Positions 1,839 to 64,000 of a DNA stretch of 64,000 nt are shown here, piece after piece. How positions within the stretch are numbered: position 1 is the stretch's first letter; each line of letters opens with the position of its first letter. The notes below the pieces were generated by a model that saw only the letters and a program-made list of their open reading frames with translations, was not told the origin of the DNA and made no database searches. Both the position numbers and the translations under genes were made by a program. Source of the DNA: Marispirochaeta sp. (GTDB lineage: Bacteria; Spirochaetota; Spirochaetia; JC444; Marispirochaetaceae); contig CAXXFF010000004.1 in assembly GCA_963676835.2 (NCBI GenBank), positions 416,001 through 480,000 of the forward strand. Direction: 5' to 3'.

Positions 1839-1871
1839 AAAAAACCCTCCCGTGAAAAGAGAGGGAGGGTT
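1839..1871 (-). terminator. Rho-independent terminator after satP
   Basis: AACCCTCCC/GGGAGGGTT stem followed by a T-run on the minus strand. Confidence 0.75.
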
Positions 1872-1896: not shown

Positions 1897-2457
1897 TTAC
1901 AGGGGCAGTACAGTTTTTCCGTATTCGTTATTAAGGGTCTGAGCCATGGCTCCGTAGATAGCGGAAAGACCGCAGAAAATTCCCTCAACACCGGCAACCT
2001 TGCCGAGGACAATCCCGAAGGTGCTTTCACCGGCAAACTTGTGAATGGCCAGCATGGCAAAAAGCAGCGTCAGGGAGCCGAAGATAATCCGGGTAGTCAT
2101 ATTGTGCTTCAGGGTTCCGATGAACATGTACAGGGTAAACAGTCCCCAGAGAGACAGATAGAAGCCCATGGCACTGGCGGGTGCACCACCAATTACAAAA
2201 ATTGCCACCAGGGTAAGCCAGAAGGCACCGTAGGAAGTAAAGGCAAGCCCACCGAAGGCATTTCCCTTCTTGTACTCGATAACCCCTGCAATCATCTGGG
2301 AAAGTCCGCCGTAGAAAACACCCATGGCAAGGATAACAATATTTACTTCAAAAAGACCCGCATTGTGCAGGTTCAAAAGAACAGTGGTCATTCCAAAGCC
2401 CATCAGCCCCAGGGGTGCGGGATTGGCGTAACCGCTTTTGTCGATTTCGTTACTCAT
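1897..2457 (-). CDS. satP: Acetate/succinate uptake channel, GPR1/FUN34/YaaH family
   Basis: ANPAPLGLMGFG signature, SYGAFW motif, six hydrophobic segments. Confidence 0.92.
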   Translation of the reverse strand: MSNEIDKSGYANPAPLGLMGFGMTTVLLNLHNAGLFEVNIVILAMGVFYGGLSQMIAGVIEYKKGNAFGGLAFTSYGAFWLTLVAIFVIGGAPASAMGFYLSLWGLFTLYMFIGTLKHNMTTRIIFGSLTLLFAMLAIHKFAGESTFGIVLGKVAGVEGIFCGLSAIYGAMAQTLNNEYGKTVLPL

Positions 2458-2515: not shown

Positions 2516-5500
2516 TTAAGGGCTTACACTTGCAATACGCCTGCGGATGGAACTGCTTACCGGGTCGAGCTCAAGAGCAGATTCATAGGTATCCCGGGCG
2601 AGAGCATCCCTCTTCAATTCTCTATACAGATCACCCAGGGCAATATACCCCTGGGTAAATTTCGGATCAAGAGAGAGGGCAGACCTGAAAAGCTCTTCAG
2701 CATGATCGTACTCTTCCATTTTTCGCAAGGCCCGGCCATACCAGACATAGGCCCAGGGATAATCAGGCATGGTTTCCAGACTGCGGGCAAAGGGCTCTCC
2801 GGCTTTTTCGTACTCTTTGTTCCGGTAGTAGGCCTTCCCCAGATCCATCCAGGCAGACCCATACTCCGGACGCGCCTTAACCACCTGCTCTAACAGTTCC
2901 GCAGACTCGGGGAATTTCTGAAGGTCGTAGAACATCTCAGCCAGATCCCTCTGCGCGGCAAGCGCCTCCTGCTGATTTGCGATAACAGTGCGGTAGATGC
3001 TCTCGGCATCATCAAAGCGTTCCAGCTTCTGCAGAACCCCCGCAAGATCCAGTGAAATATCCGGATCATCAGGTTGATAACCGGCCGCCTGGCGAAGATA
3101 TTTTTCGGCCTCATCCCATTCATCACCATCAGCATAGATCTTCCCGAGGCTGGAAAGCACATCAGCATTCCCGGGAAATTTCAGGACTGCTTCATGAAGG
3201 ATTTCCAGAGCGTCCTCCCTGCGGCCCTGACTGTACATCAAGGCTGCCAGCTGACTGGGCCATACCGGATTATTCGGATCATCCTCAATACGCTGCAGAT
3301 AAATTTCATCCGATTCATCCAGCATGGCAAGCTCGTCTTCCATCAAACGGCCAATCCCCGGATCGATATTCAGAGCCATGGAATAACTCTCTTCCGCCCG
3401 GGCATAATTACCAAGTGCCTGATAGACTTTACCGGTGTTGTACCAGATAAACTCATTATCCTGAATCGATTCCAGTGCGGCATTCATATAATCCAGGGCT
3501 TCCGGATAACGGCCAAGAACATAGAGCTCTTTTCCGGCAAGGTAACGCAGATAAGGATCAGGATCCTCATCTGCACTGTAAGCCCGGGTAAAAGCATTCA
3601 ATGCTTCAAAGTGCCGGTCAAGATCGGAGAGAAGGGAACCAAGCTCTTTCCAGCCCTTTCCATAGGCCGGATTCAGCGAAACTGCTATTTCGTACTGCTC
3701 GACGGCGGGTGAAAAATCCCCAAGCTTCTCATACTGAAGAGCCAGGTTGAAATGCAGCTCTTCCGCATCCGGATTAATCTCTACAGCTTCTAGAAGAAGA
3801 TCCCTCGCCTCCTCTACCCTGTTCCTGGATGACAACAGTGCCGAGAGGTTCATCCAGTAGACATGCTGTTCCGGCTCAAGAGCGAGGGCCCGGCGGTATG
3901 CCTTCTCCGCCTCATCGGGGTTGCCAAGATTACGCTGCAGCAGGGCAAGATTAAACCATGCGGTGGTATACTCCGGATTAAGCTTGAGCACAAGAAGGTA
4001 TTCCTCAAGGGCCGACGGTTCATCTCCCAGCTTGCGGTACTGTACAGCCAGATTAAGCCTGGACTTGATATCTTCCGGATTCAAAGCAAGGGCCTGATGA
4101 TAGGCATCAACGGAAGCATTCAGATTTCCCCTTAAGCCCTCGGTAACCCCCAGATTATACCAGGCTTCCTGGTAGCCGTCGTTAATTTCAAGAGCTTTTG
4201 CAAAGGCGGCCTCCGCCGCATCATACTCCTCCATGGAGAGGCGGGTAACGCCGAGGTTATACCAGGCACGGTCATACCAGGGTGCTGCCGCAATGGCTGT
4301 TTCGTAGGCTTCCACCGCTTCGGGAAGCTTTTCCTGAGAGGAAAATACCAGCCCGAGATTGTTCATAGCCTCCACAAAGGGATGCTCCGAACTCTCCCAT
4401 GCCTGCCGGAACATCTCCTCCGCCGCAGCATTTTTATTCTGTTGAAAATAGATCCGGCCCCGCTGAAAAAGAACGTTGGCGTACTGGGGGTCTGATTCAG
4501 CAATAAGATCAAGCTGCCCGAGGGCCGTCCTCTGCTCACCGAGATCAATGTAGATTTTCGCAAGCTCAAGCCTGAGAGTTCCGGAATCCGGAAAAAGAGG
4601 CAGCGCATCCGAAAGAACAACCACAGCCTGATCCCTGTCGCCTTCCTTAAGCTCCAGTTCCGCAAGGCCCAGATAGACTTCAGGAACATTACTGTCCAGG
4701 CGCAGAACTTCTCCGTACACTGCTCTGGCCTCATCCGATCTTCCCAGGTTCTGTCCAAGGAGTTCCGCCAGGGCAAGTCTGGCACTGACAGCGGCAGGTT
4801 CCAGAAGAATGGATTCATTCAATACACCCTGCGCCTCTTCAAAACGGCCTGCAGCCATCAGACTCTTTCCGAGCACCCTGTAGGCAGCTGCTTTCTTAAT
4901 CCCCCCTGCATACCCGACTGCCCTGCGCAGATAGGTTTCCGCTTCACTCTGCCTGCCGGTGTTGAAAAAAAGAACACCGAGATTATAGGCTGCTTCAAAA
5001 TAGTTCGGCCTGAGGGCAAGAGCTTTCTGATACGCCCCCAGTGCATCCAGTGTTCTCCCTGCGGCGCTTGTCATAATCCCGAGATAGAGATAATAACGGG
5101 CGGTTTGCCTGCGGTCCTCCGCCATGGACTCAAGCAGGTCCAGCGCCGAAGCTGGTCCGTCCTTTTTCATCAGCAGAAATACATCAAAAAACGCAGCATC
5201 TGCCGATGCGGCTTCTTCCGGGTGAAGAACCTTCCAGGCAGTCCACTCTTTCTCAATCTGTTGCGGATCCTCCAGAGACAGTCTTTCCTGAAAATCCGTA
5301 ACATCCCGCACTGCAGATTCTCCGGCAAAAACCTCCTGCCGGATATTGTTCCTGTTCACCCCGCCGAAATCACGGGCCTGGGTATTGATGGAAACCATTA
5401 GAGGTTCAGATTTTATCCGGTGAGCGGCATATTCAAAATGGCCAAGCCCCAGAAGCAGAAGCGAAACTGCGGAGAGAATTTTTACCGGTGAACGCTGCCA

Positions 5501-5524
5501 GAGCAGCCGGGCGGTGCTGTTCAT
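2516..5524 (-). CDS. Large TPR-repeat protein with N-terminal membrane anchor/signal
   Basis: Roughly 20 or more TPR units (AWYNLG, A..AY..AL.L.P). Hydrophobic N-terminus. ATGA overlap with the upstream gene. Confidence 0.9.
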   Translation of the reverse strand: MNSTARLLWQRSPVKILSAVSLLLLGLGHFEYAAHRIKSEPLMVSINTQARDFGGVNRNNIRQEVFAGESAVRDVTDFQERLSLEDPQQIEKEWTAWKVLHPEEAASADAAFFDVFLLMKKDGPASALDLLESMAEDRRQTARYYLYLGIMTSAAGRTLDALGAYQKALALRPNYFEAAYNLGVLFFNTGRQSEAETYLRRAVGYAGGIKKAAAYRVLGKSLMAAGRFEEAQGVLNESILLEPAAVSARLALAELLGQNLGRSDEARAVYGEVLRLDSNVPEVYLGLAELELKEGDRDQAVVVLSDALPLFPDSGTLRLELAKIYIDLGEQRTALGQLDLIAESDPQYANVLFQRGRIYFQQNKNAAAEEMFRQAWESSEHPFVEAMNNLGLVFSSQEKLPEAVEAYETAIAAAPWYDRAWYNLGVTRLSMEEYDAAEAAFAKALEINDGYQEAWYNLGVTEGLRGNLNASVDAYHQALALNPEDIKSRLNLAVQYRKLGDEPSALEEYLLVLKLNPEYTTAWFNLALLQRNLGNPDEAEKAYRRALALEPEQHVYWMNLSALLSSRNRVEEARDLLLEAVEINPDAEELHFNLALQYEKLGDFSPAVEQYEIAVSLNPAYGKGWKELGSLLSDLDRHFEALNAFTRAYSADEDPDPYLRYLAGKELYVLGRYPEALDYMNAALESIQDNEFIWYNTGKVYQALGNYARAEESYSMALNIDPGIGRLMEDELAMLDESDEIYLQRIEDDPNNPVWPSQLAALMYSQGRREDALEILHEAVLKFPGNADVLSSLGKIYADGDEWDEAEKYLRQAAGYQPDDPDISLDLAGVLQKLERFDDAESIYRTVIANQQEALAAQRDLAEMFYDLQKFPESAELLEQVVKARPEYGSAWMDLGKAYYRNKEYEKAGEPFARSLETMPDYPWAYVWYGRALRKMEEYDHAEELFRSALSLDPKFTQGYIALGDLYRELKRDALARDTYESALELDPVSSSIRRRIASVSP

Positions 5525-6387
5525 AGAGCATCCTCCAGAACTGTTCTCAGGCCTGTACCGTTTACCACCTGGATTTCCAGCCCCGGGCGGGCATTGAGTT
5601 CGAGAACAAGGGGACCCCGTTCAGCATCAATAACAATATCAACACCTACATAGCCTAAGTTTACACAGGAGGCAGCCTTTACGGCTGTTTCCAACACATC
5701 CGGCCACAGGGGAAGCACCCTGCCGCGAAACTCAACCTGCGAATCCGGGTGGAGAGATATGGATTCTCCTTTAAGGGATCCAGCGGAAAGCATCCCGTCT
5801 GCCAGGGAAACAGCAATACCGACAGCCCCCTGATGCAGATTCGCCTTCCCGTCGGACCGGCTGGTGGGTACCCGTAGCATGGCCATCACCGGTTCGCCTT
5901 TCAGAACAATAATACGCAGATCCGCAACCCCCCGGTCGTAGATGGTATGGAAAAAATCATGCGGAATGATCCGCTCCTCAACCAGAGCTTTATCAGTGGG
6001 ATTACCGAAGGAGAAAACACCGAAAAGAATATCACCAATATGCTTCAGAATAGCATCCCGGCCCATAATCCTGCCCGAAGGGGTTGAGAAGCTGCCTTCC
6101 CCCATATTCTGCAGCACCAGAATGCCGCCGCCGCCTTTACCCATGGTTGGTTTGATAACGATATTCTCAAGCTGAATCAACTGTTCCCAGACTGCGTCAA
6201 TCTCCACATAGGAATCGATGACTGCATGGGTACGCGGCACAGGAACAGAGGAATCCTCAAGCAGAGTCTTCGTCTGAAGTTTATCGTCTGCCTGGGGAAA
6301 ATACTTTCTCCGGTTCAGGGGCTGAATTATCTCAAGGTTGCGATGGTTTATGCCCATGAGGCCCGCAAGACTCTCCGGATGAATCAT
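5521..6387 (-). CDS. RimK-related alpha-L-glutamate ligase-like ATP-grasp protein (ATPgrasp_ST type)
   Basis: GINHRN, ADDKL, VIKP..GKGGGGI, DLRII, SDGKANLHQGA, GVDIV and LELNARPGL motifs. Confidence 0.9.
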   Translation of the reverse strand: MIHPESLAGLMGINHRNLEIIQPLNRRKYFPQADDKLQTKTLLEDSSVPVPRTHAVIDSYVEIDAVWEQLIQLENIVIKPTMGKGGGGILVLQNMGEGSFSTPSGRIMGRDAILKHIGDILFGVFSFGNPTDKALVEERIIPHDFFHTIYDRGVADLRIIVLKGEPVMAMLRVPTSRSDGKANLHQGAVGIAVSLADGMLSAGSLKGESISLHPDSQVEFRGRVLPLWPDVLETAVKAASCVNLGYVGVDIVIDAERGPLVLELNARPGLEIQVVNGTGLRTVLEDAL

Positions 6388-8006
6388 GGTGCGCTCCTTC
6401 TGAAAATAAGCCCTCTGAAGCGGTAGAACTCGAGAAGCCGTATGCCTATCCAGCTGCCGATCCAGAGGTCCATGGCAATCACGCCGAGCAGCAGTTCCGG
6501 AAAGGCGAGAACAAGAGAACGGAGGGCAACAGAGCTCATTACCAGATAGCAGGCGATGATCACCACAAGAGTCTGGAGCATGGTGGTTAACATTTTCCCC
6601 ATACCTTCTTCACTTATAGTCAAAGCGATCCGCTCCGAAGTCAGAGTCAGTATGGCCACCGGAAACAGGGTGGTCGAGTTCAGCGCCGTCAGCCCTTCCA
6701 GTTCCCACAGCCGGGCGAGAAAAGAGACCAGAATAAGGCTGAAGATAACTCCGATCATCATGATCGCCAGCTTGGGGGTATGCAGAAGCCCCAGCTTATC
6801 CAGTGGGTAGCGCATAATAACTGTAAGACCGAGAACAAGAAGGAAGGCAAGCATGCCCTGGACTATCCCCGTCTCCTGGACAGCCATGGCCATTAATGCC
6901 GGCAGAAAAGTACCGAAAGTCCGCAATCCTATAACATTTTTAAACAGAACCACAAACAGCACACCAAAGGGTATCACCAGCAGAAACTGCAGGATTCGCA
7001 GCGAAACACCCTGATCAACAAGCCCCTTTACCAGCTGATACAGGTTCCAGGAACGGCTGTCGAGAAAACCTGCCAGACGCACATTGGTAACATCACTGAC
7101 GGAAATGGTAAAAAGATAGTCAAACCCGATATTTCTGGAATGGCTGAACAGGGCCTCGTCACCCCGGTAGAGAGCAAGGTAATTTTCCGGAAGTTCTGCA
7201 AAATGATGATTCAGGGTATCGAATGGCACCCAGTACCCGCCGATATACACTTCTGCCCACTGGTGACTTGTCCGTTTGGTCCCGGTGGTCATAATCAAGC
7301 CCCCCACAAGACGGGAAGGAATGCCGAGCTGACGCATCATGGCCACAAAGAGCCTGCTTTTGCCGTTGCAGCTGGCTTCTCCCAGCTTCATTGCCGTCAG
7401 GGCATCGGTGGTACCCTTGAAAGGTCTGGATCCAAGATCATCAACATATTCAAAAATATGCCCTATAACCGTCAGCAGGTTGTCGGAATTGCCTGCAAGT
7501 TCCCTCACCTTCTCTACGATCAGGGGATCATTCACCTGTATGACTTCCGTGGGAATAAGGAAATCGCGGAACTGTTCCGGATAGGAATCGAGGAGCTTCA
7601 AGTCGGGAGAAACAGCGTACTCAACCGCACGGGATCTGACAGAATAACTCACATTAATGGAATAGGGACCTTCCGCCTGAAAACGGGTCCAGTCGCCCCG
7701 GGAGAAGAGCCCGGTGTTTTCCCGGGAAAAGTTCAGATCAGGAGCTTCCAGAAGTTCCTCACTGATGGTCTGCCTGTCCGTGTCCGCCGGAAGAAAGGTA
7801 CGGACAACCACATCATCTCCGTTTCCGGAAAAACTCATCCGCAGCCGTACATGATAGCTGCTCTGAGGAACCAGCGATTCAAATGAATAATTCCAGACAA
7901 ACAGCTTCAATGCCATAAGGGTCAGCATGGCAAGAACAAGGAGAACCATTATTCCCCGGATAACCAGATGCCTGGAGATGGTTTTCACAGCACTCAGTCC
8001 TCCCAC
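6384..8006 (-). CDS. Transglutaminase-like domain fused to a 7TM (7TM_transglut) domain
   Basis: ASCNGKS..LGIPSRLVGG..SHQWAEV..WVPFDT transglutaminase core. C-terminal hydrophobic block with GLRTFGTFLP, LFPVAILT..SER and FPELLL. Confidence 0.85.
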   Translation of the reverse strand: MGGLSAVKTISRHLVIRGIMVLLVLAMLTLMALKLFVWNYSFESLVPQSSYHVRLRMSFSGNGDDVVVRTFLPADTDRQTISEELLEAPDLNFSRENTGLFSRGDWTRFQAEGPYSINVSYSVRSRAVEYAVSPDLKLLDSYPEQFRDFLIPTEVIQVNDPLIVEKVRELAGNSDNLLTVIGHIFEYVDDLGSRPFKGTTDALTAMKLGEASCNGKSRLFVAMMRQLGIPSRLVGGLIMTTGTKRTSHQWAEVYIGGYWVPFDTLNHHFAELPENYLALYRGDEALFSHSRNIGFDYLFTISVSDVTNVRLAGFLDSRSWNLYQLVKGLVDQGVSLRILQFLLVIPFGVLFVVLFKNVIGLRTFGTFLPALMAMAVQETGIVQGMLAFLLVLGLTVIMRYPLDKLGLLHTPKLAIMMIGVIFSLILVSFLARLWELEGLTALNSTTLFPVAILTLTSERIALTISEEGMGKMLTTMLQTLVVIIACYLVMSSVALRSLVLAFPELLLGVIAMDLWIGSWIGIRLLEFYRFRGLIFRRSAP

Positions 8007-9808
8007 CTGAAGCCGACACTCATCCCCCAGAAGCTGTAATTGGTTGCATAGAAATCTTCATAGGTATGGTTGGAAACGGACTGCCTGTATGACAGATCAA
8101 AAAGCAGGGAAAACCGGCCCCTTGTATCAGAATCCGCCAGAATAATTAGATTATCCCAGGACGCTTCAAAACCGGTATCCTGCCGGGTTTCTCCAGTAAA
8201 TGCCTGAAGCTCATCCCTGGCGGGATAGTTGATAAAGTTGCGCAGATCAAGAATCAGACCAATGCCCGAACGTAAGGACCCCTTTTTATAAGAGGTATCA
8301 GCTTTCAGCTGATAACTCATGTAGTCAAAATAGTCCGCAACAAACTGATCTGCGGGTGTTCCCGAAACAAGATAGTCATAATTAAATGTTTTCAGGTACT
8401 CCACCCCTGCACCAAGGGAAACATCAAGGCCCGGCAGAACTTCACTGCCCAGTTCGAGGTCGAAGGCATTACTCAGATACTGCCGGGTACCGGGGTCAGT
8501 GCCTCCGGCGGCAGTATCGAAGTGAGCATCCAGGTAATACTTCCAGAACACCGTGTAATCAATCTTTAACCAGGAATCCGGTGTAAGCTGATAATAATAG
8601 TAGGGGCTGAAATTAGCCTTGGCATAATCAATAGTATTTCCGGCATTGATATAATCCGGATAGGTCACCAGGGAAATATAGGTGTCCGTTCCTATCCTGG
8701 CGAATCTGCTGATGTTCGCATCCAGCTGATGTCGGATTTTCCCTTTATAGTTTGTATCACCATCGTCCTCAGCCAGGGATAGATCTCCTTCCAGACTGAT
8801 GGACTGTTCCATATAATACTTCGATCCCCAGCGAATACCTGCAGAGGCTGAAAGGCTCTCTTCAGCCTGAATAAGCCTGGTATTACCAGTCTCGTCAGCA
8901 GGAAAATTGAATGTCTTGAAGGCAAAGGGATCATGAATATAGCGCCCGTCCCAGTCAAAATACATCAGGGGACTTATGGGTAATGAACCGGAAAGCTTCA
9001 GATCAAGTTCCCAGGAGGGAGTTGAAGCATATGAGTTGTAAGCCCCGGCCGCTGCAAATGCATAGTTAAATTTTGTCTTTCCGGCAGAAACTTCGGCAAT
9101 GTCCTGCTCCAGGGCAGCTGATTTTTCATATGACCCGGGGAAGCTGTTCTGCATTTCTGCAAGATATTCCTCTGCTTTTGCCAGCCACTCCTCAACATTT
9201 CCGGCTGTTTTTCCAAGGCCCGCCAGACGTACTGCAAACTTGACCCGGTACTCCATGAGAGTCTCAATGGTATCTTCATCCAGCTCCATGGCAAGAAGAG
9301 TATCTGCAGTATCTATACCGGCAGTCCACACGTCCTCCGCCGCAGAGCCGAAGCCGCCGGATCTGGCATGAACACCGGCAAGCAGATAACCTTTCATCAA
9401 CACCGGTATTGCACGGTTAAAATAATTATCCGGCTTAAGGGAAAAAATGAGGGGGACAGCAGCGTCGGGTATATCATCTTCCCTGTCCAGGTGATCATAC
9501 AACTTAAGCAGATCAGAAAGCGACTCGGTTCTCCTGTTGCTCGTTTCATCCTTAAGAACAGTTAGAAAAGCTGCTTCACTTTCGCCAAAAAGGTTAAGCT
9601 TCCAGTAGATTCGGCCAAGGTACCAGAGAGCATCATCAGCCTTTGCACTGAGAGCCTGCTCATCCCTGAATTGTTCCAGAGATTGGCGGGCACCATCAAA
9701 CTCGTCATTTCGGTACTGCTCCTGCCCTGTGCGGTAAAGATCATCCTGTTGGGAAAAAAGCGGCAGGGAAAATAATGCTAAAAGGATACTATATATAAAA
9801 TATCGCAT
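7994..9808 (-). CDS. Exported protein: N-terminal TPR (BamD/YbgF-like) plus probable C-terminal outer-membrane beta-barrel
   Basis: Signal peptide ending LPLFS, ADDALWYLG TPR motif, a Tyr/Phe-rich C-terminal half with alternating beta-strand pattern ending WGMSVGFRWED. Confidence 0.65.
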   Translation of the reverse strand: MRYFIYSILLALFSLPLFSQQDDLYRTGQEQYRNDEFDGARQSLEQFRDEQALSAKADDALWYLGRIYWKLNLFGESEAAFLTVLKDETSNRRTESLSDLLKLYDHLDREDDIPDAAVPLIFSLKPDNYFNRAIPVLMKGYLLAGVHARSGGFGSAAEDVWTAGIDTADTLLAMELDEDTIETLMEYRVKFAVRLAGLGKTAGNVEEWLAKAEEYLAEMQNSFPGSYEKSAALEQDIAEVSAGKTKFNYAFAAAGAYNSYASTPSWELDLKLSGSLPISPLMYFDWDGRYIHDPFAFKTFNFPADETGNTRLIQAEESLSASAGIRWGSKYYMEQSISLEGDLSLAEDDGDTNYKGKIRHQLDANISRFARIGTDTYISLVTYPDYINAGNTIDYAKANFSPYYYYQLTPDSWLKIDYTVFWKYYLDAHFDTAAGGTDPGTRQYLSNAFDLELGSEVLPGLDVSLGAGVEYLKTFNYDYLVSGTPADQFVADYFDYMSYQLKADTSYKKGSLRSGIGLILDLRNFINYPARDELQAFTGETRQDTGFEASWDNLIILADSDTRGRFSLLFDLSYRQSVSNHTYEDFYATNYSFWGMSVGFRWED

Positions 9809-9949: not shown

Positions 9950-10663
9950 ATGACAGGCCCTTTTCTCAACAGTGCAGCAATAATTACAGGCGGGATTCTC
10001 GGTGTTGTTCTAAAGAATGTTGTGCCCAAACGAATAGAGGAAGGGCTGCCATCGACCTTTTCCCTGGTTGCCATGTCTCTCGGAGTAACCATGATTATCC
10101 GGGTAAGCAATGTACCCGCAGTGGTTATCGCCCTGCTTATCGGAACTGTCATAGGGGAACTTCTCAAACTGGAAACAGGGGTACAGACCGCCGCAGGAAA
10201 ACTGCAGAAAAGCGTTGCCCGCATAATTCCCCACACCCACTCGCTGGACGATGAAACCTTCGCCAGGAACTTTACTTCCATGACCATACTCTTCAGCGTA
10301 AGCGCCCTGGGAATTATCGGAGGCCTGACAGAGGGATTGAGCGGGGACTATCAGCTGCTGATTATAAAGTCTCTGCTGGATTTTCCCACAGCTCTGATAT
10401 TTGCCATGAGCCTGGGAGCGGCTGTTGCATTTATTGCTGTTCCCCAGCTGATCATTCAGGGGGCTATGTTTTTTCTGGCTGAGGCAATAATGCCCTGGAT
10501 GGATGAGGCAGCCTACGGCGACTTTTCCGCACTGGGAGGCATCATAATGCTCGCCATAGGACTGCGTATTGCAGGAATAAAGAACTACTCGGTTACCAAC
10601 TTTCTGCCCGGCCTGCTGCTGGTAATTCCCGTATCATACCTCTGGAGGCACTATTTCGGCTGA
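9950..10663 (+). CDS. DUF554 (YdfK/YqgA-like) membrane protein
   Basis: GPFLNSAAIITGG and KSLLDF motifs. Start moved to ATG 9950, which follows an AGGAG SD. Confidence 0.88.
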   Translation: MTGPFLNSAAIITGGILGVVLKNVVPKRIEEGLPSTFSLVAMSLGVTMIIRVSNVPAVVIALLIGTVIGELLKLETGVQTAAGKLQKSVARIIPHTHSLDDETFARNFTSMTILFSVSALGIIGGLTEGLSGDYQLLIIKSLLDFPTALIFAMSLGAAVAFIAVPQLIIQGAMFFLAEAIMPWMDEAAYGDFSALGGIIMLAIGLRIAGIKNYSVTNFLPGLLLVIPVSYLWRHYFG

Positions 10664-12151
10664 AGAATCACCGGTCGCTTCCCCCACGTCAGCGGCGGTA
10701 TTCAGCCCGGCAATACTCTCTTCCCTGTTTTTCTGCTTTAACCAGAGAATCTGTTTCTGGGTTCCCACCAGGTGAAGCTGGCCACCGTTTTCCTTCAGCA
10801 CCATATACAGGTTAAGCAGGTAGCGGATACTTTCGGGATCGATTGATTCAACCTTACTCATTCGAATGGTAATCTCTTTCTGTCCGGAATAGAGGAGCTG
10901 GCGGATCATAGGGGAGAGATACTCAACATTTCCCAGGGATAACGATCCGGAGAGGATAAAAACCCCCGGGGACTCTCCGTCAATCTCAATGGACAGAGGA
11001 TTCTTCAGGGCTTTTTTGTCTTCAACCTTCTGACTTTGGGAGGTGACATGAGAAAGCATCTCGTTGGTATTCCGCAGCCGCTTTACCAGCCCCTCCAGAA
11101 TATTCATAAACCAGTCGGGCACGGTATATACATTGGCAAAAAACTCACGGGGGGTAATTTCCAGAACAGTACTGGTTTTTGCAGCCTTCACTGTGGCAGA
11201 GCGCTTGCCTTCCCGCAGTAGAGACATTTCGCCTACAACATCACCGGAACGGGATTTTCCAAGAAAAACCGGGTTCTGCCCTTTTACCTCCTCGAGAATC
11301 TCAAACTCACCGGACTTGATAACAAACATGGATCGTTCATAATCACCCTGGCGAATCAGAATCTCTCCCTGTTCAACCCGACGGAGGGGCAGGTTTGAGC
11401 TTTCAATTAGGCTGCGAATCTCTTTTATTCCGGCAACCTTATTGCGGATAAGCTGCATATTCCGCAGCTTTATTTTACCTTCCTGTGCAGGCCTGCTTTT
11501 AGCCAGCTGAAGCAGATAGCCCAGACTCTCCATATCGGCATCAATTACGCCGGAAAAATCGATAACAATACCTTCGGGGCACTTCAACAACGCCTTTCGC
11601 ACCCGGACTTTGACCGAATCTATCTGAGTCTGGTCAAAAACACCCTTCAGATGCAGTTCGCCATTACACTCCTGCTGTTCAAGGGGTGCAGAATTTTCAG
11701 AGCTTTCATCCCGAGAGCTCTCTTCAGCTGCTATTGGATGAGGACCGGAGGCCATGTAGTCTCCAAGCAGTTCTGTTGTACGTTTTATCCGTTCAACCAG
11801 AACCCGGGCAATACTCAGGGCCCAGCCGGAAATACTCAGAGCGTCATCTTTGAGAATATCTTCACTGATTCTATTGGCAATTACAGGTTCAAGGGCGGTG
11901 ACTGTTGCGGTACGGGGAATCCCTGCAATAAAGGACATTTCCCCCACATGACAGCCTTTTCCAAGCTCGGTAATGGGTACGGTGGCTCCTTCCTTGGAGA
12001 TTGCTACCCGTACCCGCCCCTTGCGGATAATATACATTTCCCGGCTTTCGGATCCTTCCTTAAAAAGGAGATCCCCCGCATCGAAACGCAAAAGCTTTGT
12101 CTGTGGATAAAGATCATCGGCCCGTTCGGGCGATTCTTCTGTCTTGCCCAT
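10634..12151 (-). CDS. Tandem cNMP-binding/STAS protein (cNMP-STAS-cNMP-STAS)
   Basis: Two CNB motifs (GEMSFI..PRTATV; GEMSLL..KRSATV), each followed by a STAS-like segment (IVIDFSGVIDAD; ITIRMSKVESID). Confidence 0.8.
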   Translation of the reverse strand: MGKTEESPERADDLYPQTKLLRFDAGDLLFKEGSESREMYIIRKGRVRVAISKEGATVPITELGKGCHVGEMSFIAGIPRTATVTALEPVIANRISEDILKDDALSISGWALSIARVLVERIKRTTELLGDYMASGPHPIAAEESSRDESSENSAPLEQQECNGELHLKGVFDQTQIDSVKVRVRKALLKCPEGIVIDFSGVIDADMESLGYLLQLAKSRPAQEGKIKLRNMQLIRNKVAGIKEIRSLIESSNLPLRRVEQGEILIRQGDYERSMFVIKSGEFEILEEVKGQNPVFLGKSRSGDVVGEMSLLREGKRSATVKAAKTSTVLEITPREFFANVYTVPDWFMNILEGLVKRLRNTNEMLSHVTSQSQKVEDKKALKNPLSIEIDGESPGVFILSGSLSLGNVEYLSPMIRQLLYSGQKEITIRMSKVESIDPESIRYLLNLYMVLKENGGQLHLVGTQKQILWLKQKNREESIAGLNTAADVGEATGDSSAEIVPPEV

Positions 12152-14780: not shown

Positions 14781-16970
14781 CTATTTCTCCGAAAGCTCTT
14801 TTATTCTGGGAATAAGATCCTTCAGCTCTTCCGGAGTCTCAGCTTTGAGCCAGGAATCTTCAAAGGAGGGATGGTTTACTATCAGTGCCAGGGTGGAGAT
14901 TACCACCAGGTGAAAGTGGCGCTGATCCATGGATCCCGCCAGGAAGAACATGGCATGAACCTCGGGAGCCGTATCGGTAAATTTAATTCCCCGTTTTGAG
15001 CGGACAATAAGCAGCTGAAACTTGCGCTTGCCCTCGATAACAATATGGGGCAGAGCAAAGAATGGGCTCAGGGCAGTCGAACTGGAAGCCTCCCGGGCAA
15101 GGAGTTTGTCGTAAATCTCCTTGGCGTTGATATCCGCGTGTTCCTTTGCCATTTTTTTGGACGCAACCTTGAAGAGGGTTTCCATCTTTGAGGATTTTTC
15201 ATAATCAATAACTTCACAGTTGGCCACGAGCTCTTCGAAGCGGTCCTTCTCAAGCACATCGTCCCCGGCAATAATCTGCTCCAGCTCCTTCTCCAGAGAA
15301 GGAGATGCAAGCTCCCGGGAAGTGACCCGTTCAACCAGCTTGAGCATATCCCGGTTTATCCGTGAAGAACGCTGACTCATGGCCATGGCAAGCTTTACTG
15401 TGTAGCCCGAGTCTATGCCGCCGCTCACTGAATCCGGCCGGAAATGCTTTTCAAACTCGTCAAAGAGAGCATCAATCTCCTTACCAAGAGCATCATCAAT
15501 GGCTCCGGTCTCCCGAAGCTTTGCCAGAACCGGGGCACCTTCATTATCAAGATAGTCAAAAAGCTCCGACTGGTAGCTTAAAAGCTTACCCGTAGGATAC
15601 TTGTCCAGACGGCCTGATGTACCGGCCTTAAGAATAAAAACCTGTTTAAAAACATCCACCGGCTGATACTGGGGCTGCTTGAGAATCTCCGTAAGCCGTT
15701 CTCCCCGGTCGAGCTGCTTCTTGGTGGCGCTGTCCAGGTCTGATGAAAACTGCATAAAGGCTGCAAGCTCCCGGAACTGGGCAAGGTCAATACGAAGAGA
15801 ACTTGCGGTCTGCTTCATTGCCTTTATCTGGGCATCACCGCCGACACGGGAAACAGATATTCCCACATTAATAGCCGGACGCAGACCGGAGTTGAACAGG
15901 TCAGCCTCAAGGAATATCTGACCGTCGGTTATGGAGATTATATTTGTGGGAATATAGGCGGAAACGTCACCTTCCTGAGTCTCGACAATAGGCAGGGAGG
16001 TGAGGGATCCTCCTCCCTGCTCATCACTCATCTTGGCGGCACGCTCAAGGAGCCTGGAATGGAGGTAGAAAACATCTCCCGGATAGGCTTCCCGTCCCGG
16101 AGAACGGCGCATCAGCAGGGAGAGCTCCCGGTAGGCCTGGGAGTGCTTGGTCAGGTCATCATAGATAACCAGGGCATGCTGTCCGTTATCCCGAAAGTAC
16201 TCCGCCATGGCCGTAGCGGCGTAGGGAGCAAGATACTGAAGTGCAGCAGGGTCGGAAGCGGTGGCGGCAACCACAGTGGTATACTCCATAACACCATGAC
16301 GCTTAAGGGTTTCGATAAGCTGAACCACCGAGGAGCGCTTCTGTCCGATGGCTACATAGAAACAGTAAACCGGTTCATTACGGCTGTCCTGCTTCTGATT
16401 AATTATCGTATCCACGGCAATGGTGGTTTTTCCGGTACGGCGGTCGCCGATGATCAGCTCCCGCTGTCCACGGCCGATGGGAATCATGGCATCAATAGCC
16501 TTGATTCCTGTCTGCAGGGGTGTGGCCACATTCTGCCGGTCGATAATGCCGGGGCCCTTCCGCTCCACCCGGTAATAGGCTTCCGCTTCAATGGGTCCCT
16601 GCCCGTCGATGGGATTTCCCAGGGGATCAACAACCCGTCCGAGAAGAGCTTTACCCGCAGGAACCTCCGCAACACGGCTGGTCCGGCGGACAGTACAGCC
16701 TTCCCGGACCTTCTCGTATTCCGAAAAGAGGACAATACCCACAGTATCCTCTTCGAGATTCATGACCATGCCGCTGACTGGATCACCGGCATCGACATCA
16801 ACCTCTACAAGTTCCCCGGACATAATATTGTCCAGACCCCAGACCTGAGCTATACCGTCACCAGCCTGAACAACCCGGCCGACTTCAACTTCCCCGGAAG
16901 ACGGCTTGAAATCGGAGATTCTGTTTTTAAGCAGTTCAAGAATCTCCCCCGGTTTTATCTCTTCTCTCAT
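14781..16970 (-). CDS. atpA: F0F1 ATP synthase alpha subunit fused to a C-terminal PTS EIIA-like domain
   Basis: GDRRTGKT and [20 protein letters not shown] in aa 1 to about 510. A further ~219 aa follow in frame, containing LARE..SSTAL..FALPH. Confidence 0.97.
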
Positions 16971-59648: not shown

Positions 59649-60620
59649 CTATGATTTGGGGTATCTCTCATTCAATGATGAGTATAGATTTTCCAGGGCA
59701 GTTCCGCCCTGGTAAAGGGCAACATTTCCCTCAGGCCAGGAATGTCCTTCAATATTATAACCATCATCAGGAAAGATAAGATTTCCATTTAAATGGCGCT
59801 GTTCCACGCACATTGCCAGAAGAGTTTCAGCGATACCTTCTGCTGAAGCAAAACGCTTGGTTGGAGTATGCGCAAGGATGCTCTTTGCCCGGGGCTTTGG
59901 TTCTCCGTTGGGTGTAAAACTCAATGATCTATTAAGGTCAGTAACAACTGTGCCGGGAGCGATCCCATTCACACGTATACCAAATGGGGCTAATTGAGCT
60001 GCTGCTGTTTGCACAAGCCCTTCAACACCATGCTTACTTGCATTATAGCCATAACTGCCATACAGCGAATGCCTACTGGCACTGCTGCATAAGTGTATGA
60101 TATGACCTTTACGCTTAGGGACCATATTTCGAGCCATAGCGAGAGTAAAATTAAAAGCACCTGTCAAATTCAGCTCTATAACTCTTTTAAAAGCTTCAGA
60201 AAGCTGAACCGGGTCTTCCAGGACGAGATCAAACTCCGGGTGATGCACTCCTGCAAAATTCACCGCCACATCGATACTTTCCAATCTCTCAAATATCGCC
60301 CTGGAAGCTTCCAGTGTATCTTCAATGCTGCGAACATCTGATGCGATAGCAAGAGAAAGAGCTTCTTCGTCTATAGAATTAAGGTTTCCCACAATCGTTT
60401 TAAAGCGTTCCATACGCTGTGCTCCGAGAATTTCATCACTGGGAATAAAGTCAACAATAGCCAATTCTGCGCCACATAGGGCAGCGGAGTATAGAAACAT
60501 CTCTGCCAGGGCACCTATGCCGCCAAAGGCAGCAATTTTTTTTCCCTTCAAGTCTATTTGCGGGGTGAAGTCGTAATTAAAATCTCTGCTTTTCAAGTTC
60601 TCAAATTCTATAATTCGCAT
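59649..60620 (-). CDS. SDR family oxidoreductase
   Basis: NFAG, NLTG, YNASK and IRVNGIAPG motifs. Confidence 0.88.
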   Translation of the reverse strand: MRIIEFENLKSRDFNYDFTPQIDLKGKKIAAFGGIGALAEMFLYSAALCGAELAIVDFIPSDEILGAQRMERFKTIVGNLNSIDEEALSLAIASDVRSIEDTLEASRAIFERLESIDVAVNFAGVHHPEFDLVLEDPVQLSEAFKRVIELNLTGAFNFTLAMARNMVPKRKGHIIHLCSSASRHSLYGSYGYNASKHGVEGLVQTAAAQLAPFGIRVNGIAPGTVVTDLNRSLSFTPNGEPKPRAKSILAHTPTKRFASAEGIAETLLAMCVEQRHLNGNLIFPDDGYNIEGHSWPEGNVALYQGGTALENLYSSLNERYPKS

Positions 60621-60712
60621 ATAACCTCTTTATCTACCAATGTTCTTAGCTCCCGAAGTGATCCCACTGTAGGTTGATCTTCTTTATAGAACTACCCCCC
60701 ACATCAATAGAT

Positions 60713-62002
60713 TCATCCCGCAGCAACTCCGAATATCAGGTTTGGCAACCAAAGACTAAGCTGTGGAATAAAAGTGAGCAAAAGAAGCACAATAACCAGA
60801 GGAATTATATATATCGCAGTAGACCGTGCTACATTTTCGACGGTTGTATTAGCAACACTGCTTAACACAAAGAGCACCGTTCCAAAGGGCGGAGTAAGAA
60901 TACCAATCATCAAATTAAGAATCATAATCACGCCAAAATGAACAGGATCAATTCCAAGAGATGCCATAAGAGGCAAGAAAACAGGTACAAGTATATTGAT
61001 CGCTGCTACAGTCTCCATAAAAAGGCCGACAATCAGAAGCAAAATATTTATTGATAAAAGAATTAAATAGTAATTATGTATGTGGTTCAACATAAAGTTT
61101 GCTACTATTTGCGGAACCTGCTCCTTGGCCAGGATCCATGCGAACAGACTCGCTGATACAACAATAAACATCACCTGTACCGTAGTACTCATCGAACTTC
61201 GTAATGCACGGAGGAATCGTTCGAGATTCATTTCCTTATATATCAAGACTCCGATAATTATCGCGTAAACACAAGATATGGCGGCCGCCTCTGTTGGAGT
61301 AAAAACACCAAAAAAAATCCCGCCAAGGATAATTCCTGGTGTCAACAACGCCCAGAAAGTCTGCAAAAAAGAGACTGCAACATCCTTGATAGAGCTGGAA
61401 GCCTCTACAGGAGTACCAAGTTTAACCGCCTGGAAATAAATTAAGACCATTAAGGCACCGCCCATAAGAAATCCCGGAACAATACCAGCGGCCAGGAGCC
61501 GCCCAACTGATGCCTGAGCAACTACGGCATAGATTACTGCAACCATACTCGGGGGAATAATTGGACCAATAGTTGAAGATGCGGCAGTTATACCCAGAGT
61601 CATACTATCTGGATAACCAGCTTTTCTCATTGCAGCAATCTCGATAGCGCCTAACCCGCCTGCGTCTGCAATTGCAGCACCCGACATTCCTGCAAATATT
61701 ATACTGGCAACAACATTCACATGACCAAGCCCGCCTTTTATATGGCCAACAAGACGGCTGGCAAATGTAAAAATCCGTGTGGTTACTCCTGTTTCATTCA
61801 TAAGATTGCCTGCCAGGATAAAAAAGGGGACAGCAAGCAACGGATATGTGTTTGCACCGGCAACCATCCGCTGAATGGCGGTAAAATTTGGAACCGCACC
61901 ATCTGCTATGACATATAACATCGAAGGGAGAGCTATTGCGACTGAGACTGGTATTCCCAAGGCAATAAACATGAAAAGGCTGATAAATAAAAACCACAGC
62001 AT
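60713..62002 (-). CDS. dctM: TRAP transporter large permease
   Basis: LLAVPFFILAG, GPIIPPS, FTPTEAA and GILTPPFG motifs. Confidence 0.95.
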   Translation of the reverse strand: MLWFLFISLFMFIALGIPVSVAIALPSMLYVIADGAVPNFTAIQRMVAGANTYPLLAVPFFILAGNLMNETGVTTRIFTFASRLVGHIKGGLGHVNVVASIIFAGMSGAAIADAGGLGAIEIAAMRKAGYPDSMTLGITAASSTIGPIIPPSMVAVIYAVVAQASVGRLLAAGIVPGFLMGGALMVLIYFQAVKLGTPVEASSSIKDVAVSFLQTFWALLTPGIILGGIFFGVFTPTEAAAISCVYAIIIGVLIYKEMNLERFLRALRSSMSTTVQVMFIVVSASLFAWILAKEQVPQIVANFMLNHIHNYYLILLSINILLLIVGLFMETVAAINILVPVFLPLMASLGIDPVHFGVIMILNLMIGILTPPFGTVLFVLSSVANTTVENVARSTAIYIIPLVIVLLLLTFIPQLSLWLPNLIFGVAAG

Positions 62003-62024
62003 ATTAAAAATGTCTCCTTATAAA

Positions 62025-62528
62025 CTAAGCTCCCAGTTTTGTCGTAGGTTCATTAAATCCTTTTTTAAATTGCCTGTAGGCATCCGGTATTTCTCTAATA
62101 GTAAATAAAACCCCTCCAACAGCTGGTGCGATATATAGCCAAAACTGGGATAACTGCATCGCCTGCGAACGGAATAATGCCGAACGCGACGCAAGTTGAA
62201 AGCTAAAAACAATGAGTAAGACAAGAAAAAGTAGAATAATAATTTCTTTAAAAAGCCATATAACCATTCGAACAACAGGGTGCAATGCCGGCTCAATCAT
62301 TGCATACATAATCTCAATTTTTATATGCGATCCAAATCTACGCACATATGCAGCACCGACAAAAGATAACCAAACAAACGAATAGCTGGAAAATTCAACA
62401 CTCCATGAAGCATAGAAACCTAGGACATATCTAGAAAAAACCCCAAAAGTCATAACAACAAATACTGACATGAAGAATATTGTTGGCAATGCTTCTTCAA
62501 AAACATCATAGATTTTTTGTAGTTTCAT
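62025..62528 (-). CDS. dctQ: TRAP transporter small permease
   Basis: Four TM helices; VFSRYV, WSVE and HIKIE motifs. Confidence 0.9.
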   Translation of the reverse strand: MKLQKIYDVFEEALPTIFFMSVFVVMTFGVFSRYVLGFYASWSVEFSSYSFVWLSFVGAAYVRRFGSHIKIEIMYAMIEPALHPVVRMVIWLFKEIIILLFLVLLIVFSFQLASRSALFRSQAMQLSQFWLYIAPAVGGVLFTIREIPDAYRQFKKGFNEPTTKLGA

Positions 62529-62566
62529 TACATTTCCTAAAGAGAAACAAGTACATGCTTTTAAAA

Positions 62567-62589
62567 GGCCGGGAAATTCGTTCCCGGCC
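62567..62589 (-). terminator. Intercistronic hairpin after dctP
   Basis: GGCCGGGAA-attcg-TTCCCGGCC followed by T4 on the minus strand. Confidence 0.6.
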
Positions 62590-62597
62590 CAAGGGGG

Positions 62598-63620
62598 TCA
62601 CATATTCTGGATTCTGGTAAAGAGATCTTCTCCATAGCGGATCCACCACTTGCGAAAGTCCACAGGCATAGACGCTGTCTTTTTCAGGAAAGCATCCTTA
62701 TCAGGCTGGATAATTTCACATCCTTGCGATTCAAAGAACGATCCAAGGTTTTTATCATCTTCCTTGAGAAGATCAATGATAAGAGTAGAGGCCTCATCAA
62801 AAGCATCGGTGACAATTTTCTGTTGTTCGGATGAAAGTCCTTTAAACTTCTCTCCGTTCATAAGAAAGAAACACAGATTGGTTACATGCCCGGTTAAATT
62901 GATGTATTTAGCAACTTCGTAAAATTTCATTGCTTTAATAGCAGAAAGGGGATTCTCAAGACCATCAACAACACCTTGCTGCATAGCCATGTAAGCTTCA
63001 GAAAATGCGATGGGCGTTGGTTCAGATCCCATAGCTTTACCATATGCTACTGTTACCTGCTGCTGGGGAACTCTTAATTTAAAACCTGACAAATCTTCAG
63101 GAGTTCTGATTGGTTTTTCTACCGAAACGAGATGTCGAATTCCATATGCAGAAGTTCCGATTACCTTTATGCCAAATTCCTTCTCCAGATCGTCGAACAT
63201 CTGCTGTCCTATATCGCTTTTTGCAAAACGAACAACATGGTCAAGGTCTTTGAAAAGATACGGCATTTCAGCAACGTAAATCGGTTTATAGAGATTTCCG
63301 ATTTGACCAGCACCTGAAACTGCCATATCAACAGACCCAAATATTACAGCCTCGGTAATCTGTTCCTCAGTTCCCAGCTGGGATGAAGGGTAAACTTCAA
63401 TTTTAATTAACCCGTCCGTTCTCTCCTCAATCAGCTTTGCTGCAAGATTCGCGCCCTGGTCCCATGGATGCCCAGGGTTATACACATGTGCCAGCTTCAT
63501 TACAGTTGGTTCAGTAATACCTTCGCCACCTGATGCACTCTGCTGTTGCCCATTAGAGAAAGCAAGAGACATCACAACACCCATGAGCGCCATTACCATG
63601 ATCATTTTTTTGATGTTCAT
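62598..63620 (-). CDS. dctP: TRAP transporter substrate-binding protein (DctP family)
   Basis: YPSSQLG, LRVP and QGVVDGLENP motifs; signal peptide. Confidence 0.95.
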   Translation of the reverse strand: MNIKKMIMVMALMGVVMSLAFSNGQQQSASGGEGITEPTVMKLAHVYNPGHPWDQGANLAAKLIEERTDGLIKIEVYPSSQLGTEEQITEAVIFGSVDMAVSGAGQIGNLYKPIYVAEMPYLFKDLDHVVRFAKSDIGQQMFDDLEKEFGIKVIGTSAYGIRHLVSVEKPIRTPEDLSGFKLRVPQQQVTVAYGKAMGSEPTPIAFSEAYMAMQQGVVDGLENPLSAIKAMKFYEVAKYINLTGHVTNLCFFLMNGEKFKGLSSEQQKIVTDAFDEASTLIIDLLKEDDKNLGSFFESQGCEIIQPDKDAFLKKTASMPVDFRKWWIRYGEDLFTRIQNM

Positions 63621-63692
63621 TTGAGATCCTCCTATTTTTTGCCGAAATACATGTGCGATCTCAGGAAGCTATTCTTTTTTCGGCAGTATTTG

Positions 63693-63751
63693 ATATATGT
63701 TATCACAGTACAGTAACATGTCAATACAAATATATGTGATAACATATATTT
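63693..63751. promoter_or_regulatory. Probable GntR operator
   Basis: 15-bp inverted repeat ATATATGTTATCACA / TGTGATAACATATAT. Confidence 0.6.
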
Positions 63752-63872
63752 GTAAATCTAAAATAAAATACTATATAAAAAGAAAATATATGTTCAATCT
63801 AATCCCGATAAACACTTTACCCTAAATACCTCAATCGATATAATGCAGAAAAGGACATACAGGAAAAGACCG

Positions 63873-64000
63873 ATGGGCATTGATAAGATTAGTACCAAAA
63901 CACTCCGACAAAAGGTTTTTGATCAACTTAAAGATTCAATAATGTCTGCCGAGATGGAACCTGGGCAGATTTTAAACCTCAGGGGATTAGCCGAGAAATT
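63873..64000 (+). CDS. GntR family regulator, N-terminal part; runs off the right edge
   Basis: Manual translation gives MGIDKISTKTLRQKVFDQLKDSIMSAEMEPGQILNLRGLAEK. Confidence 0.75.
   Translation, partial: MGIDKISTKTLRQKVFDQLKDSIMSAEMEPGQILNLRGLAEK

Follow-up and report, generated by a model that had tools for sequence, protein, structure and literature searches.

A four-gene cassette of Marispirochaeta couples an Rlo-type core with an intact catalytic triad to a predicted outer-membrane conduit: a candidate poly-amino-acid export system of diderm bacteria

We analyzed a 64,000-nucleotide stretch of a Marispirochaeta sp. genome (assembly GCA_963676835.2, contig CAXXFF010000004.1, positions 416,001 to 480,000; hereafter the window), in which four minus-strand open reading frames (ORFs) between positions 2516 and 9808 encode proteins of 604 (A), 540 (B), 288 (C), and 1002 (D) amino acids (Table 1). 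In this order they specify a predicted outer-membrane barrel with tetratricopeptide repeats (TPRs), a transglutaminase-fold domain joined to a seven-transmembrane (7TM) domain, an ATP-grasp ligase, and a long TPR scaffold. The B/C and C/D junctions are 4-base ATGA overlaps, and at both a Shine-Dalgarno-like run can be read in the sequence 7 to 8 bases before the start. A and B would overlap by 13 bases if B began at GTG 8006 and would be separated by 5 bases if it began at GTG 7988 (534 residues); the latter is the more likely start, because a GGAGGA run lies in the last codons of A and because the closest homolog of B, the 534-residue protein P0002 (91% identical), is six residues shorter. 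The original prediction for this DNA, made from the letters alone, had four same-strand genes with overlapping stop and start codons; the strand and the two ATGA overlaps stand, while A and B are more probably parted by a short gap.

Table 1. Window coordinates of the four genes, their key domains, and the downstream end of the operon.
Feature	Position	Strand	Description
Gene A	7994..9808	-	604 aa; signal-peptide-like N terminus, YfiO/YbgF-like TPR helices, predicted outer-membrane barrel
Barrel domain of A	8000..9073	-	residues 246-603, 16 predicted strands (AlphaFold)
Gene B	6384..8006	-	540 aa; N-terminal membrane helix, periplasmic beta-sandwich plus transglutaminase-fold domain, 7TM; RloB relative
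Catalytic triad codons of B	7218..7370	-	Cys213 7370-7368, His248 7265-7263, Asp263 7220-7218
Gene C	5521..6387	-	288-aa cytoplasmic ATP-grasp ligase; RloC and RimK relative
Gene D	2516..5524	-	1002-aa TPR scaffold, N-terminal membrane anchor
SatP/YaaH acetate transporter gene	1897..2457	-	58 bases past D; domain matches
Terminator-like hairpin plus T run	1845..1865	-	consensus scan only

B and C form a core with known relatives. B carries PF01841 and PF14402 (141.6 bits) together with a weak PF14400 match, and C matches PF14397 at 234.3 bits; against the models of the Rlo proteins, B scored 132.5 bits (NF052267, RloB; cut-off, 900) and C scored 291.7 bits (TIGR02291, RloC type; E 5.4e-87 over nearly its full length, under the curated cut-off of 314.2). 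The rloABC operon was described in Pseudomonas aeruginosa by Lormand et al. (mBio 2025, PMC12239564). RloA, a secreted aspartic peptidase, cuts runs of at least eight glutamates, and no genome-encoded substrate was found for it; cells require RloA under hypo-osmotic stress, a need that deletion of rloB or rloC removes, and a triple rloA mutant is rescued by loss of rloB or rloC (PMC12239564). Mutants of rlo genes show shape and osmotic (PMC12239564) as well as vesicle phenotypes, and an rloB-type gene alters vesicle output in Shewanella (PMC12096838). As in rloABC, the 7TM transglutaminase gene here precedes an adjacent ATP-grasp ligase gene, with a 4-base overlap, and alignment by BLAST to canonical-type proteins from the loci compared gave 26 to 34% identity for B and 39 to 46% for C. 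Unlike rloABC, however, the cassette keeps the catalytic triad in place of an inactive domain, adds a membrane-anchored TPR protein and an outer-membrane barrel, and occurs in at least nine diderm phyla, whereas 96% of RloB hits are reported from Proteobacteria (PMC12239564). It also lacks the RloA retropepsin: neither the operon nor the rest of the 97%-complete Marispirochaeta genome yielded a peptidase of the RloA/RimB family (PF05618), which bears out the earlier remark that this version has no separate peptidase gene. Judged by its sequences, the cassette is not rloABC, two defining features of that operon being absent, although the core is shared. The original prediction had placed the pair among RimK-related ligases with 7TM/inactive-transglutaminase partners; such relatives exist and now have a name, rloABC, and genetics, but the transglutaminase-fold domain here has an intact triad.

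In B, the Cys-His-Asp triad expected of an active transglutaminase-like (PF01841) enzyme is present in a transglutaminase fold (Cys213-His248-Asp263). Its AlphaFold model (predicted local distance difference test [pLDDT], 86.5) has as best Foldseek match the putative cysteine protease 3ISR (E 7.7e-16), with whose Cys, His, and Asp the triad aligns; TgpA (6G4H, 4.5e-5) and other transglutaminases are also among its structural neighbors. The triad and the basic residues K216, R218, and K244, which flank the Cys and the His, are invariant in all 46 aligned homologs. Across the 158 loci collected below, the third triad column holds Cys or Gly instead of Asp in 17 (L024, L045, and L053, for example), mostly from Myxococcota or other deltaproteobacterial lineages, by either a real change or an alignment shift.

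We compared active-type loci with canonical Rlo loci. A search with the B alignment confirmed 472 stretches in a species-genome collection, from which we retained 78 loci, and 291 in metagenomes, from which we retained 80. The canonical sample came from PF14402 alone, run over 250 Gammaproteobacteria; 42 were positive, with 44 PF14402 places, and 40 regions were fetched (G386 and G411, near contig ends and both with RloA, and G219, identical to L019, were not refetched). Three regions were set aside: L248 has no 7TM match, L247 is of the active type, and L246 (from G273) represents a third 7TM type with no triad, ligase, or RloA nearby. None of the remaining 37 canonical loci has the catalytic Cys, a TPR protein of the D type, or the barrel (0/29 for the barrel among those with at least 4400 bases downstream), and 34 have RloA; RloA is absent from every active-type locus (0/158). 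PF05618 does occur elsewhere in 14 of 50 active-type genomes, three of those loci having a RimK-like neighbor. Gammaproteobacteria contain both types, as do Spirochaetota (G000 versus G040) and even one individual genome (G298); taxonomy alone therefore does not account for the split. The intact triad and the RloA peptidase exclude each other across loci, a pairing that is strong, not strict. The barrel family is present at full length in one of 37 canonical-only genomes (G493), and there are three weak partial matches besides. In G493 the barrel is an unlinked 551-residue TPR-barrel protein beside uvrD and trk genes (L272, 6847-8502), and the same genome has an rloBC-type operon with neither RloA nor catalytic Cys, possibly an intermediate state. 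The spirochete G040 carries a canonical rloA-B-C operon (L164, 7674-10832) in which B and C are each split over two frames by frameshifts or assembly errors.

Because the triad and RloA are mutually exclusive, we favor a cutting role for the domain of B over the cross-linking or anchoring that the original prediction assigned to it within a trans-envelope system for poly-amino-acid synthesis and export, a scheme whose barrel and TPR neighborhood do stand. With synthesis and export unchanged, the domain might instead be a transamidase that ties the chain to amines on peptidoglycan, a surface protein, or another chain, yielding an anchored or cross-linked capsule-like layer, much as CapD anchors poly-gamma-glutamate. 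The intact triad and the transglutaminases among the structural neighbors would suit such an enzyme, and anchoring would make a clearing peptidase needless, in keeping with the missing RloA. We nonetheless regard it as unlikely, since the best structural match by far is a cysteine protease, an anchoring enzyme at the inner membrane would act before the barrel is reached, and the partner that the triad excludes is a hydrolase.

The ligase is intact as well. Aligned to RimK (5ZCT), C retains the ATP-grasp Lys, Glu, Asp, and Glu-x-Asn motifs for ATP and metal binding, and K36, K80, E137, R158, N183, D250, E263, and N265 are invariant in 64 of 64 sequences; R158 corresponds to the acceptor-site arginine R189 of RimK. 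C thus shares the ATP-grasp core and this arginine with the RimK/RimB system, which makes and trims poly-alpha-glutamate (PMC11957791, PMC10375531). It differs from RimK in scoring far under the cut-off of TIGR00768 (72.6 versus 143.4 bits), in lacking the RimK N-terminal domain (R8/R64; the alignment starts at RimK residue 86, C residue 22), and in being tied to a membrane partner. A complex prediction for the 7TM domain of B with C scored 0.42 against 0.00 for the best control, with at least 77% contact agreement between runs and partner pLDDT values of at least 82; among reference pairs, 116 of 157 solved complexes attained the mark, as did 2 of 215 mismatches, but only 18 of the 157 and both mismatches did so with scores of 0.60 or less. 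The models lend weak support to a contact between C and the 7TM domain.

The 7TM domain itself may be a distant relative of CapC, going by a resemblance that is not significant. Foldseek of B gave matches to the transglutaminase domain only. Comparison with CapC by hhalign gave probabilities of 1% (shallow alignments), 6% (deeper alignments; score, 24.05 versus at most 19.56 in 30 shuffles), and 0.18% (N-terminal half, colinear over 67 columns at 25% identity; E 0.33, nonsignificant). The CapC family PF14102 matched nothing in the genome or in the 46 B homologs; two weak PF14102 matches in Bacteroidota look by eye like transporters of the major facilitator superfamily and were rejected. In poly-gamma-glutamate (Cap/Pgs) systems the roles are divided among CapB, a Mur-type ligase, CapC, CapA, and CapD, and the Cap operon is not known to include a TPR-barrel. 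The concept is the same, with a cytoplasmic ligase, a membrane partner, and an outside processing enzyme; C, however, is an ATP-grasp protein, unlike CapB, and by its ligase the cassette is not Cap/Pgs.

At the outer membrane, A starts with what looks by eye like a signal peptide, followed by TPRs that give a weak domain match. Its AlphaFold model (pLDDT, 95.8; predicted template modeling score, 0.88) has helices over residues 24 to 242 and then 16 long strands over residues 246 to 603, which supports a predicted TPR plus outer-membrane barrel; the original prediction, which had the 604-residue protein only "probably" as a barrel and would have fallen had it folded otherwise, gains from this model. 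The first three Foldseek ranks are BcsC, BcsC, and PelB (best E values, 1.5e-10 for BcsC 9B8A and 1.3e-8 for PelB 9H80), with PgaA at rank 8, so that its comparison with the layout of synthase-dependent export was well placed. The TPR part resembles YbgF and BamD. The barrel sequence matched no solved structure; barrels of such loci, among them the stand-alone ones next to B-C-D in other phyla, fall into three sequence clusters of one family (hhalign, 96 to 99% between clusters), whose profiles match no other ORF among 2851.

D contains many TPRs and a hydrophobic stretch near residues 15 to 32, and would be a type II inner-membrane protein with its repeats in the periplasm. A search among longer proteins returned 10 matches, 8 of which are B-C-D triple fusions of 1549 to 1613 residues. 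The one fusion examined (P0276) has a membrane helix between ligase and TPRs, which places the enzyme outside, the ligase inside, and the scaffold outside, a coherent out-in-out topology. A single 1131-residue sequence (P0283) runs from a degenerate outer domain through 7TM and ligase to a C terminus that resembles a barrel; its topology is odd, and it is possibly an assembly artifact. With an inner-membrane enzyme unit, a periplasmic TPR scaffold, a predicted TPR-bearing outer-membrane barrel, and a periplasmic hydrolase-type domain (compare AlgL), the cassette resembles the exopolysaccharide secretion systems BcsC, PelB/PelC, PgaA, and AlgK/AlgE. It differs from them in its catalyst, an ATP-grasp amide ligase; neither the four genes nor the conserved neighbors scanned include a glycosyltransferase, and there is no sugar-modifying gene. 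Lacking a glycosyltransferase, it is not an exopolysaccharide system, but by analogy it likely operates in the same way.

The same parts could in principle run inward, the barrel admitting an external peptide or polymer that B hydrolyzes and takes up in pieces for reuse by the ligase. For A, porins share first place in the VIA-align ranking; scavenging would be a fitting task for a hydrolase joined to a membrane domain; and in the Marispirochaeta genome a monocarboxylate transporter gene follows D. We consider this direction improbable, however, because TPR scaffolds of 620 to 1000 residues are typical of export, because the conserved neighbors include no TonB-dependent or ABC uptake genes, and because in P. 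aeruginosa the genetics trace what the periplasmic peptidase must remove back to RloBC (PMC12239564).

The neighborhood recurs widely. The ligase is present in 153 of the 158 active-type loci, and hand counts over the 78 genome loci gave D in 70, all eight misses having at most 1257 bases downstream, and the barrel in 59, with 14 misses in truncated loci and five in untruncated ones. Among those five, L080 has its barrel divergently upstream, L076 has another barrel-like ORF, L065 has a partial match on a different contig, and the genomes of L047 and L058 gave no barrel match at all. The TPR and barrel genes, whose conservation beside the ligase/7TM pair was the check proposed with the original prediction, are kept there far beyond chance, and given the fusions and the co-occurrence we reject a chance cluster. 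Loci occur in Spirochaetota, Bacteroidota, Gammaproteobacteria, Myxococcota, Campylobacterota, Nitrospirota, Calditrichota, Acidobacteriota, and Desulfobacterota, that is, in at least nine phyla, all diderm, as assigned by us from organism names. Among kin the cassette is patchy: it is in two of six genomes of the genus, and PF14402 is in 3 of 61 relatives, one of these being of the canonical type. No relatives were found in viral contigs. Spirochetes place the barrel gene first, with a YfiO-like TPR attached; Myxococcota have a separate YfiO-like TPR protein between D and barrel; in other phyla the barrel follows D. In Sulfurimonadaceae, three loci (L048, L050, L064) carry a second B and D in tandem (order B-C-D-B-D-barrel), and their relatives L047 and L058 are single copy without a barrel. 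Five Bacteroidales loci (L021, L023, L026, L049, L095) have a membrane-fused spermidine-synthase-like gene after the barrel, possibly a hint of an amine cosubstrate.

These surveys bear on two further explanations. In the first, the ligase would tag a protein or small carrier, for example with an acidic tail, B would process it, and the TPR-barrel would export or display it, as Slam-type TPR-barrels, which have 14 strands, export lipoproteins. TPRs bind peptides, 6 of 85 members of the barrel alignment weakly match SlipAM (best E 1.8e-4), and the best-known job of RimK is protein tailing (PMC12239564). Yet no substrate gene is conserved among neighbors of at least 80 residues, clusters other than those of B, C, D, the barrel, and the YfiO-like TPR holding nine loci at most, and the model of A has 16 strands; we judge protein tagging quite unlikely. 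In the second, the proteins would connect the two membranes as a bridge that is structural or senses stress, and what the ligase makes would stay inside the cell envelope as a local modification of the periplasm or cell wall. The shape, osmotic, and vesicle phenotypes of rlo mutants (PMC12239564, PMC12096838), the YbgF- and BamD-like TPRs of A, and the loci without a barrel would all suit a bridge, which nevertheless leaves unexplained a 16-strand pore beside nearly all untruncated active-type loci and none of the canonical type; we give it little credence.

We tentatively read the cassette as a synthase-dependent exporter of an acidic poly-amino acid, likely poly-alpha-glutamate, in which the domain of B is a cutter that replaces RloA; more broadly, it would be a poly-amino-acid export system of two-membrane bacteria, with a built-in cysteine enzyme for RloA and an unnoticed surface polymer in at least nine phyla. 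We put the probability of this reading at roughly 0.45, somewhat short of even odds. Docked on the cytoplasmic face of the 7TM domain, the ligase C would lengthen the chain at the expense of ATP; the 7TM domain would carry it across the inner membrane; and the periplasmic transglutaminase-fold domain would cut it, releasing it or clearing strays, as RloA would do in canonical systems. From there, if BcsC, PelB, and PgaA are a guide, D and the TPRs of A would lead the chain through the periplasm into the 16-strand barrel; canonical rloABC would be a periplasm-only form of the same synthase. Three analogies underlie this mechanism: free poly-alpha-glutamate is a product of RimK, both in vitro and in vivo (PMC11957791); the rescue of the rloA mutant by loss of rloB or rloC is as expected of a synthase paired with a clearing enzyme, compare AlgL, which clears periplasmic alginate (PMC8829089); and synthase-dependent export systems have the same arrangement of TPRs and barrel (PMC9384988, PMC9734138). 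Several caveats apply. Glutamate as the monomer is its weakest link, since C lacks the RimK domain that carries the glutamate-selecting residues. The motifs used to fetch the active-type loci themselves include the Cys and the His, and kin among these loci are not independent. Finally, the pairing of triad and RloA falls short of strict because 3 of the 37 Cys-less canonical loci lack RloA.

Downstream of D, the SatP/YaaH gene is probably on the same transcript as the four genes in Marispirochaeta sp., with the likely transcript end at the hairpin at 1845-1865, a strong site in a consensus-only terminator scan of the window (17 sites versus 9.5 expected). A promoter scan found 14 sites versus 9.5 expected, none decisive. 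Since the SatP gene is not conserved, occupying the same place only in L005 among the loci compared, we rejected it as a member of the cassette. Elsewhere in the window, an ATP synthase alpha subunit gene (14781-16970, minus strand) encodes 729 residues, about 200 more than usual, as it also does in L005; its C-terminal extension resembles, by eye, a PTS EIIA-type domain. Directly after the ATP synthase genes, a 505-residue protein (10634-12151, minus strand) has two cNMP-binding plus STAS units. The G+C content is 0.39 to 0.43 over 60001-64000 and about 0.51 in the rest of the window.

The cassette is real and widespread, and its core is already known as Rlo; what is new is the two-way split between an active type with TPR-D and barrel and a canonical type with RloA. 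Our literature search, confined to open-access papers without their supplements, found no description of the four-gene form. What RloB and RloC make is a question left by 2025 work on stress tolerance, biofilm, and antibiotic sensitivity in Pseudomonas, and the cassette offers a testable answer: here a complete export conduit accompanies this core, and the product should thus be collectable outside the cell. The exchange of an active transglutaminase fold without RloA for a dead domain with RloA is likewise a specific prediction for an uncharacterized enzyme family. If our reading is true, the export plan of alginate and cellulose would extend from sugars to peptides, the rlo operon of Pseudomonas and Vibrio would be explained as a periplasm-only form, and spirochetes, Bacteroidota, Myxococcota, Campylobacterota, Nitrospirota, and others would carry an overlooked surface polymer.

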